A stretch of DNA of 64,000 nt from Candidatus Ornithoclostridium excrementipullorum (GTDB lineage: Bacteria > Bacillota > Clostridia > Christensenellales > UBA3700), in the NCBI GenBank assembly GCA_018716085.1, contig DVKK01000021.1, forward strand, positions 31,831 through 95,830, read 5' to 3'. The notes beneath the pieces are model-generated. The model did not search any database, was not told the origin of the DNA, and worked only from the letters and a program-made list of their open reading frames with translations. The position numbers and the translations under genes were made by a program. Shown here one piece after another: positions 36,682-37,041 of the stretch (its first letter is position 1; every line of letters starts with the position of its first letter).

Positions 36682-36704
36682 AAGCAACTCTCCTCTCTCC
36701 ATGG

Positions 36705-36732
36705 AAAAAGCGATATGCCGTCCGCATATCGC
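36705..36732 (-). terminator. intrinsic terminator/attenuator inside the speD leader
   Basis: Minus strand reads GCGATATGC-GGACG-GCATATCGC followed by TTTTT. It ends about 23 nt before the speD ATG. Confidence 0.7.
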
Positions 36733-37006
36733 CCGTAAAACAATCGCCGCTCCCCGACGCGAAGCCGGTCCATGGATAATGCGCAGAGTCTATATAGCAA
36801 ATACACTTTTACTACTCTTATTGATTGTTTTACAAGCGGTTTGTGCTTTCGCACCGGTTATTAAGTAACCAACTCATAAGACCGAGCGAGCTCGATCACA
36901 ATAAGGCAACTTGCGTTGCGTTCGGCAGTGGACCCGGCTGTCCGTGGCCATGACCCCTTGCGGGAGGTCCGAATATTTGCATGGATACTCCGTTAATATC
37001 GCATGT
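36733..37006 (-). promoter_or_regulatory. structured 5' leader of the polyamine operon (unclassified; contains 28-codon uORF 36896..36982)
   Basis: Several hairpins and a 16-bp long-range helix (36838..36823 pairing with 36745..36730). The uORF MQIFGPPARGHGHGQPGPLPNATQVALL has GGAG 5 nt upstream. See findings. Confidence 0.55.
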
Positions 37007-37012
37007 ATCCCT

Positions 37013-37041
37013 ATTGTAACCAATGCCCGAGGCTTTGTCAA
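37013..37041 (-). promoter_or_regulatory. near-consensus promoter of the polyamine operon (TTGACA-17-TACAAT)
   Basis: Minus strand reads TTGACA (37041..37036), a 17-nt spacer, then TACAAT (37018..37013). Confidence 0.65.

Follow-up and report, generated by a model that had tools for sequence, protein, structure and literature searches.

The polyamine operon of Candidatus Ornithoclostridium excrementipullorum is preceded by a long leader, which raises the question of what kind of regulatory RNA this is and what it senses. The leader lies on the minus strand of the stretch that we analysed (64,000 nucleotides of contig DVKK01000021.1, assembly GCA_018716085.1, positions 31,831 to 95,830; hereafter the window) and precedes speD, with which the operon opens. 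The original prediction, made from the sequence alone, had described an unclassified attenuator with an upstream open reading frame (uORF), a 16-bp long-range helix and a terminator, and had offered a metabolite riboswitch or a polyamine-sensitive ribosome-stalling attenuator as its mechanism. A re-check by strand reading, promoter and terminator scans and helix indexing found every listed element where the prediction had placed it. The promoter-proximal transcription attenuator stands and the word "unclassified" does not: the leader is a complete member of the known ldcC family. We consider it probable that this ldcC-family leader is a transcriptional OFF switch, built from a conserved sensor and an antiterminator/terminator that competes for the sensor helix P6, with an effector that is probably a spermidine-type polyamine bound directly.

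Membership in the ldcC family

A search of the whole window with the Rfam 15 models gave a single match at gathering level, that of RF02440 (SpF59 sRNA or ldcC RNA) at 36970..36922 on the minus strand. The match scores 50.2 bits, where the gathering score is 37.2, with an E-value of 4.8e-6 for the whole window, and spans model positions 1-54 of 54 without truncation. A significant Rfam match had been named beforehand as the outcome that would contradict the "unclassified" label, and RF02440 covers the 5' part of the leader. The ldcC motif was described as a hairpin with a bulge and a possible invariant pseudoknot that is widespread in Firmicutes. It is found in the 5' untranslated regions (UTRs) of arginine, ornithine and S-adenosylmethionine (SAM) decarboxylase genes and of potA, is probably involved in polyamine homeostasis, and is an orphan with no known ligand (PMC5737381).

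The window carries the hallmark of the family, a hairpin with a large 3' bulge holding the invariant GGCCAUACGGACAGCCGGGUC and a tail UGCCGA, in the form GGCCA--CGGACAGCCGGGUC followed by CACUGCCGA. The motif occupies 36922..36970 on the minus strand, the strand of all leader elements given below. It consists of helices P2a (GGACC 36970..36966 with GGUCC 36934..36930) and P2b (UCCC 36965..36962 with GGGG 36957..36954), both part of the RF02440 model, with the invariant bulge GGCCA--CGGACAGCCG and the tail. The location is also that of an ldcC RNA, upstream of speD and between a promoter at 37041..37013 and the ATG at 36681, and the closest of the listed relatives are metagenome-assembled genomes of Clostridia. 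The leader shares with the published ldcC RNA (PMC5737381) the full match to the 54-nt model, the host phylum Bacillota and the position in the 5' UTR of a SAM decarboxylase gene. It differs in that the published hairpin is helix P2 only of a domain of ~225 nt (P1-P9), which is followed by an antiterminator and a terminator; domain, antiterminator and terminator are absent from the Rfam model and from the papers searched.

No further Rfam family matched this 3' domain, at E-values up to 10 in 36400..37400 of the window and up to 0.1 in eight relatives. SAM-I (RF00162) gave no match at E up to 10 in 36400..37400, and there was no match at E up to 10 to ribosomal protein leaders or to the T-box, whose Rfam model encodes the specifier loop and the T-box sequence. 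In the searchable literature, sequence-string searches included, we found neither an extended ldcC RNA nor later work on the motif.

The eight relatives score 66-72 bits with the RF02440 model. In the window the bulge (36949..36931) lacks the UA of GGCCAUACGG, two nucleotides of the consensus, and this deletion lowers the Rfam score from ~66-72 to 50 bits. In metagenomes, at least four unrelated lineages carry the deletion (loci L121-L133), namely Ruminococcaceae-like decarboxylase leaders, a Bacillus-like leader, another Clostridia leader and the window's own species. Because it recurs in this way, the UA of the bulge seems to be dispensable.

The extended sensor domain

Relatives were collected by scanning one genome per species for exact matches to the 19-nt core of the motif, which gave at least 120 loci, ~104 of them true ldcC leaders. 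The listed leaders come from Paenibacillus, Bacillus-like genera, Brevibacillus, Lachnospiraceae, Oscillospiraceae, Acidaminococcus and others. Set side by side, they remain conserved for ~170 nt past the 3' end of the Rfam model, with the consensus ...GCCGA-[hairpin]-UUAUUGAUUGAG..CUCAAAUUUUAUAAGUUGGUUAC..AACC-[hairpin]-ACUUGUGAAACGGUCAAUAAGAGUAGUAAAAGU..UUGCUAUAUAGACUCU, and ~60 nucleotides are invariant across phylum-level divergence. This conservation suggests that the family is a folded sensor of ~225 nt with ten helices (P1-P9, with P2 in two parts) joined to a terminator/antiterminator, and the family would then be a strong candidate for a further polyamine riboswitch. The extended architecture appears to be a new result, undescribed so far. 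In the window the sensor, an aptamer-like domain of ~225 nt, occupies 36779..37004; it is closed by P1 and holds P2-P9.

We built a covariance model of the domain (R1; 235 positions, 54 pairs) from a MAFFT alignment of 55 leaders; it includes P3-P9 and omits P1. The only R1 match in the window lies at 36779..37001 (model positions 1-235 of 235, 153.8 bits, E 5e-45), a match that is partly by construction, the window sequence being in the seed alignment. R1 finds 96 of the 100 source leaders at full length with 105-254 bits, and three more are cut by contig ends. Locus L091 is matched in its 5' part only (model 33-103, 36 bits) and ends ~240 nt downstream of the core. In L118 the P6 and P4 strands are recognisable and highly diverged, and the leader precedes a lipoprotein-like gene and not a polyamine gene.

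The structure is conserved along with the sequence. In the MAFFT alignment of the 55 leaders 93.4% of cells are paired, compared with 33-48% in slid controls, and 19 pairs show double changes, a number reached by none of 500 shuffles. When the 100 leaders were aligned by the model (alignment A2), 94.7% of cells paired in the nine helices scored (P2a, P2b and P3-P9; P1 was scored separately by duplex energy), and double changes were present in 32 of the 54 pairs (0 of 500 shuffles). The minimum free energy (MFE) fold of the sensor-only transcript reproduces P1, its extension and P3-P8 independently. A column-pair scan of A2 for additional pseudoknot or tertiary pairs gave isolated weak correlations only, none of them beyond the modelled helices. 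The pseudoknot suggested in 2017 uses invariant bases, so it is outside the reach of covariation.

The sensor is closed by P1, in which CGGAGU (36992..36987) pairs with ACUCUG (36789..36784), and in the window this helix is extended by AUGCG (37004..37000) with CGCAU (36783..36779). The family form of P1 is AGAGUCU/AGACUCU, with duplexes averaging -8.7 kcal/mol versus -4.9 for shuffles, and it has lineage-specific extensions of up to ~25 bp in Bacilli. In four Bacillus/Paenibacillus-type leaders (L024, L041, L056 and L102), GGAAAGCnAAUAUUCAAUAU upstream of P1 is the reverse complement of the linker AUAUUGAAUAUU..GCUUUCC downstream of P1, and their closing helix of ~25 bp implies a transcription start site (TSS) further upstream in those species.

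The four small hairpins of the original prediction proved to be real RNA structure, one of them with a different outer pairing. The hairpin GACCTC/GGGGTC contains P2b as its inner stem (UCCC/GGGG). The outer pairing is possible and appears in the single-sequence MFE fold, but the family pairs GACC with the distal GGUC, and the closing pair of P2 shows 51 double changes in A2. GATCGAG/CTCGGTC is P5 (36880..36897, GAUCGAG-CUCG-CUCGGUC), which lies across the stop of the proposed uORF and has double changes in four of five pairs; GGTTA/TAACC is P7 (GGUUA 36870..36866 with UAACC 36860..36856) and GTGC/GCAC is P8 (GUGC 36854..36851 with GCAC 36846..36843), both with double changes present. P3 (36906..36919, GCAAC-GCAA-GUUGC) shows double changes in all six of its family pairs.

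The long-range helix P4 (UUAUUG 36904..36899 with CAAUAA 36823..36818) encloses P5-P8. Its family form, UUAUUGA/UCAAUAA, pairs in 99% of cells and is nearly invariant, with minimal covariation; P4 is also found in the sensor-only MFE fold. The switch helix P6 (UUAUGAGU 36879..36872 with GCUUGUAA 36837..36830; family form UUUUAUAAGU/ACUUGUGAAA) encloses P7 and P8 and likewise pairs in 99% of cells. Nearly all its changes affect one side of a pair only (U-G to U-A, A-U to G-U), apart from a single double change in one pair. P9 (36795..36814, UAGUAAA-AGUGUA-UUUGCUA) is followed by a conserved UAUAG junction; 90.6% of its cells pair, and six of its seven pairs have at least one double change.

The terminator platform and the predicted switch

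Downstream of the sensor, a hairpin-plus-U-run search found the intrinsic terminator GCGAUAUGC-GGACG-GCAUAUCGC followed by UUUUU (36732..36705, with U5 at 36709..36705), which is not listed by a simple terminator scan. It has a 9-bp stem, a 5-nt loop and a stability of -13.9 kcal/mol, and 23 nt separate the end of its U-tract from the speD ATG at 36681. The competing antiterminator pairs CGCUUGUAAAACAAUC (36838..36823) with GAUUGUUUUACGGGCG (36745..36730) in an uninterrupted helix of 14 Watson-Crick and two G-U pairs; an uninterrupted helix of at least 16 bp occurred in 3 of 300 mononucleotide shuffles. The 5' arm of this helix, which is the conserved family segment ACUUGUGAAAC, holds the whole 3' strand of P6 and the first nucleotide of the 3' strand of P4. 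The last three nucleotides of the 3' arm, GCG, are the base of the terminator 5' arm. Nucleotides 36732..36730 thus belong to both the 16-bp helix and the terminator, and 36837..36830 to both the helix and P6. The long helix, exact with its two G-U pairs, and the terminator that shares three nucleotides with it and competes with it were correctly identified in the original prediction. The antiterminator removes the terminator's three basal G-C pairs, beside the U-tract, and should disable termination in this way.

Complementarity between terminator and antiterminator is family-wide. An intrinsic terminator lies 20-190 nt past P1 in 88 of the 92 listed leaders, and the check for conservation in related leaders that had been proposed with the prediction found helices and terminator conserved. 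The family terminator carries ...CAAGU... in its 5' arm, complementary to the 3' strand of P6 and its flank. Cognate duplexes of switch and terminator average -16.5 kcal/mol, compared with -9.2 for shuffled sequences and -13.8 for non-cognate leaders, and in the listed leaders they tie up 10.5 nt of the terminator arm (median). The flanks covary by lineage, with CAUCAACUUG matched to CAAGUGAUG in Bacilli, GCAGACUUG to CAAGUCUGC in Lachnospiraceae, GCAUAC..ACUUG to CAAGUGACGUAUGC in potA leaders, and CUUGUAAA to UUUACAGG in Flavonifractor- and Gemmiger-like leaders. The 16-bp helix of the window is the family antiterminator in an unusually long form, and its nearest parallel among the listed leaders is in L022, also a speD leader. 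For covariation of the window's own helix, a metagenome scan and an exact-protein look-up gave only near-identical copies from the same species.

The promoter is of the sigma-70 type, with the -35 box TTGACA (37041..37036), a 17-nt spacer and the -10 box TACAAT (37018..37013). It is as originally predicted, agrees with the consensus at 11 of 12 positions, and is the sole promoter-like site that a promoter scan gave within 36300..37500 (1.2 kb). From the usual spacing we infer a TSS at ~37006, ~7 nt past the -10 box. A predicted 5' hairpin of GGATAC (37010..37005) with GTATCC (36988..36983) exists in the letters but is probably not transcribed as drawn. We rejected it: its 5' arm is at or upstream of the predicted TSS, GTATCC overlaps a strand of P1, and the hairpin is not seen in relatives.

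On folding, the full leader is more stable than its shuffles (z = -2.74; none of 100 shuffles equals it). The global MFE of the window leader from 37006 is -105.0 kcal/mol and corresponds to the antiterminator state with the 16-bp helix, whereas the state with sensor and terminator has -95.3 kcal/mol. The heptamer GCGATAT in the 5' loop (37002..36996), which had been noted as a possible competitor for the terminator 3' arm, does pair with that arm in the full-leader MFE fold (the ON state). It is not a family feature, a match of at least 7 nt being present in only 1 of 88 listed leaders, and GCGAUAU was rejected as a conserved second antiterminator and kept as a window-specific possibility.

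In the mechanism that we propose, transcription would start at ~37006 and the first ~225 nt would fold into the sensor, with P1 closing P2, P3, P4 (which encloses P5, and P6 with P7 and P8) and P9. Two pairings would then be open to the P6 3' strand, one inside the sensor and the other, as part of CGCUUGUAAAACAAUC, with GAUUGUUUUACGGGCG in the 16-bp antiterminator. Without effector the antiterminator would be the more stable, and the speD operon would be transcribed by default. An effector that stabilises the sensor would lock P6, allow the terminator at 36732..36705 to form and stop transcription 23 nt before speD. Such an OFF switch would amount to end-product feedback, and its effector would most likely be a spermidine-type polyamine, directly bound by the RNA. 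The direction of switching, the direct binding of a ligand and the identity of that ligand are, like the TSS, predictions.

Associated genes and the probable effector

The first genes downstream of the listed leaders are speD (24), ornithine/lysine/arginine decarboxylase genes (24), carboxy(nor)spermidine dehydrogenase genes (18) and genes for spermidine/putrescine ATP-binding cassette (ABC) ATPases (23), one representative of which passes the NCBIfam cut-off for a spermidine/putrescine transporter ATPase. Every listed architecture with at least 5 kb downstream has SpeE, a homologue of carboxy(nor)spermidine dehydrogenase (CASDH; usually with NspC) or PotA. Because each architecture holds one of these proteins, the common denominator of the genes points to a triamine, spermidine or norspermidine. 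An OFF switch acting on both synthesis and uptake would fit end-product feedback, which experiments have demonstrated for the unrelated spermidine riboswitch of the SAM-I-variant type (PMC10853860). Termination triggered by spermidine is a real regulatory logic for such genes, and further classes of polyamine riboswitch are expected (PMC10853860).

In the window, speD starts at ATG 36681 behind the Shine-Dalgarno sequence GGAGAGAGGAGAG (36700..36688) and, with it, covers 35911..36700 on the minus strand. Its product is an E. coli-type S-adenosylmethionine decarboxylase of 256 aa (TIGR03331, 392 bits against a cut-off of 256). It is followed, down to ~30362 on the same strand, by genes for an ornithine/lysine/arginine decarboxylase, SpeE, agmatinase (speB), a carboxy(nor)spermidine dehydrogenase homologue and NspC; SpeE, agmatinase and NspC score above their cut-offs. 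The operon (30362..36681) holds both known routes to spermidine, aminopropyl transfer by speD and speE and the route through the carboxy(nor)spermidine dehydrogenase homologue and nspC, and the same six-gene order occurs in at least seven further species. Directly past the terminator U-tract, 21 nt upstream of the true start, an in-frame ATG at 36702 leads mechanical lists of open reading frames to give a product of 263 aa. We rejected this start: an exact-sequence look-up of the longer form gave no match, only the 256-aa form being matched, and gene calls on five independent metagenome contigs place the start at 36681.

These five contigs (L134-L138) encode an identical SpeD, and their leader differs from that of the window in two places only, an extra A in the P5 loop (36886..36891; CUCAG versus CUCG) and a single-nucleotide polymorphism upstream of the promoter, at 37101. 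The species is abundant (450 index blocks), and its leader is all but fixed. Between speD and the divergent gltX (glutamyl-tRNA synthetase; 37217..38665, plus strand) lies a spacer of 536 nt, in which the gene callers placed no gene on these contigs. The gltX start is only ~175 nt from the spe promoter, and neither a T-box nor any other Rfam family was matched there. The polyamine operon is directly followed, on its own strand, by a gene for an SPFH/Band-7 protein with C-terminal double zinc ribbons (29126..30247).

Four other explanations can be set beside a polyamine-binding OFF switch. The main rival, which we think unlikely, is that the same switch is worked by a macromolecule such as a polyamine-responsive RNA-binding protein, a tRNA or the ribosome. 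A large domain with ~60 invariant nucleotides over phylum-level divergence is also a trait of T-box-like or protein-binding leaders, and simple riboswitches do not usually have so long and variable a linker as the 20-190 nt found here between P1 and the terminator. Yet the Rfam searches gave no match to a T-box or ribosomal protein leader, the leader precedes four classes of first gene, and the architecture is that of a classic aptamer with a mutually exclusive terminator; no regulator gene recurs among the seven polyamine proteins searched for downstream, other neighbours not having been examined. A riboswitch for another metabolite of the pathway (SAM, decarboxylated SAM, methylthioadenosine, agmatine or putrescine), or a general sensor of polycations or Mg2+, is more doubtful still. 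SpeD uses SAM and makes decarboxylated SAM, and operons that begin with a decarboxylase gene make agmatine or putrescine. The Bacilli units, however, consist of carboxy(nor)spermidine dehydrogenase and nspC only, and those of Oscillospiraceae consist of potA-type importers only. SAM and decarboxylated SAM take part in neither kind of unit, and a triamine (or, for Pot, its diamine precursor) is the only shared product or substrate.

A trans-acting small RNA (sRNA), as the Rfam name SpF59 sRNA implies, with a terminator that merely ends the sRNA gene, is improbable. Rfam types RF02440 as 'Gene; sRNA', and a terminated leader of ~300 nt would be a stable species; the element is nevertheless always in sense orientation directly upstream of polyamine genes, and the helix competing with each terminator covaries with it, which a free-standing sRNA gene would not need. 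Least probable of all, to the point that we rejected it, is the polyamine-sensitive ribosome-stalling attenuator, which would depend on the Pro/Gly-rich uORF at 36982..36896 (87 nt, 28 codons). The reading frame does exist, with GGAG 5 nt upstream, and the sub-lineage with CCAUGCAAAUAUU shares the start 'MQIF'. Start codon, frame and peptide are not conserved, ATG being present in only 14 of 107 listed leaders and replaced elsewhere by AAG, GAA and the like. In the 14 that have it, all three frames (0, 1 and 2) occur relative to the invariant core, and peptide length ranges from 4 to 50 aa. The ATG sits in a conserved single-stranded stretch, CCAUGCAAAUAUU, which elsewhere reads CCAAGCAGAUAAU, CAAAGCAAUUAUU or CGAAGCAAGAUA. 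Variation across the uORF takes the form of compensatory stem changes and non-triplet loop indels, and the 2-nt deletion in the window shifts the frame relative to the closest listed relatives. The RF02440 match sits wholly within the proposed uORF, the supposed Shine-Dalgarno sequence GGAG is part of the 5' strand of P1, and gene callers call no gene there. Between the two mechanisms first offered for the leader, a polyamine riboswitch is the best reading and stalling on the uORF is not.

Several points weigh against a polyamine-sensing OFF switch all the same. The loci were chosen by an exact match to the core, whose invariance is therefore by construction, and the sample may be biased. Alignment A2 was fitted to the structure of the model, and P4, P6 and P9 are nearly invariant, which is consistent with pairing but leaves them poorly tested by covariation. 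The antiterminator of the window overlaps the terminator by 3 nt only, and the U-tract is short (U5). The TSS, the termination event and the ligand are predictions. Sequence conservation as high as this would be expected of an RNA with a macromolecular partner (protein, tRNA or ribosome) no less than of one with a small ligand. Polyamines, moreover, bind to RNA without specificity, so that proof of specific sensing is hard to obtain.

A stronger form of the proposal is that the 225-nt RNA is the aptamer of a second class of polyamine riboswitch, widespread in Bacillota and unrelated to the SAM-I variant, which senses a spermidine-type polyamine and shuts off both synthesis (speD/speA/speE and CASDH/nspC) and uptake (potABCD) by termination. 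We put this forward tentatively, as a real possibility that falls short of being probable. In Bacillota, the cobalamin, lysine, M-box and T-box leaders are likewise large and multi-helical, with many invariant junction nucleotides and terminator platforms. The ldcC leader resembles them in size, invariant junction nucleotides and platform, and has no Rfam 15 match to any of them. The spermidine riboswitch, a SAM-I variant, is found with the same kinds of gene (speE, speB and ldcC-type decarboxylases) and is a termination OFF switch with mutually exclusive antiterminator and terminator (PMC10853860). It differs from the ldcC leader in its unrelated fold and in its rarity, with 13 representatives compared with more than 100 species for the ldcC family. 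The enterobacterial speF leader with orf34 and the uORF of eukaryotic S-adenosylmethionine decarboxylase, the two analogies drawn in the original prediction, also exert leader-based feedback on polyamine genes (PMC6386406). These two need a translated, conserved leader peptide, whereas the ldcC leaders have no conserved open reading frame.

Nearly all cells make polyamines, and much about how Gram-positive bacteria sense them has still to be worked out. A single polyamine riboswitch has been validated, the rare SAM-I variant with its 13 examples, and its discoverers expect further classes (PMC10853860). Since 2017 the ldcC motif has counted as an orphan, and our comparison suggests that the reported hairpin is just one piece of a far larger conserved sensor whose terminator/antiterminator platform is clear. 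If this is true, binding tests on the 54-nt motif alone, if there were any (we found none reported), would miss most of the aptamer. The extended domain sets the boundaries for constructs and gives a falsifiable prediction, that spermidine-type ligands promote termination. For annotation R1 is far more sensitive than the Rfam model, with 105-254 bits in untruncated relatives compared with 66-72 in the eight relatives scored with the Rfam model. The element in the window is an ordinary yet informative member of the family, and it is the wider architecture that appears to be new. In many Bacillota of gut and soil, our results suggest, the extended sensor would govern the import of polyamines as well as their synthesis.

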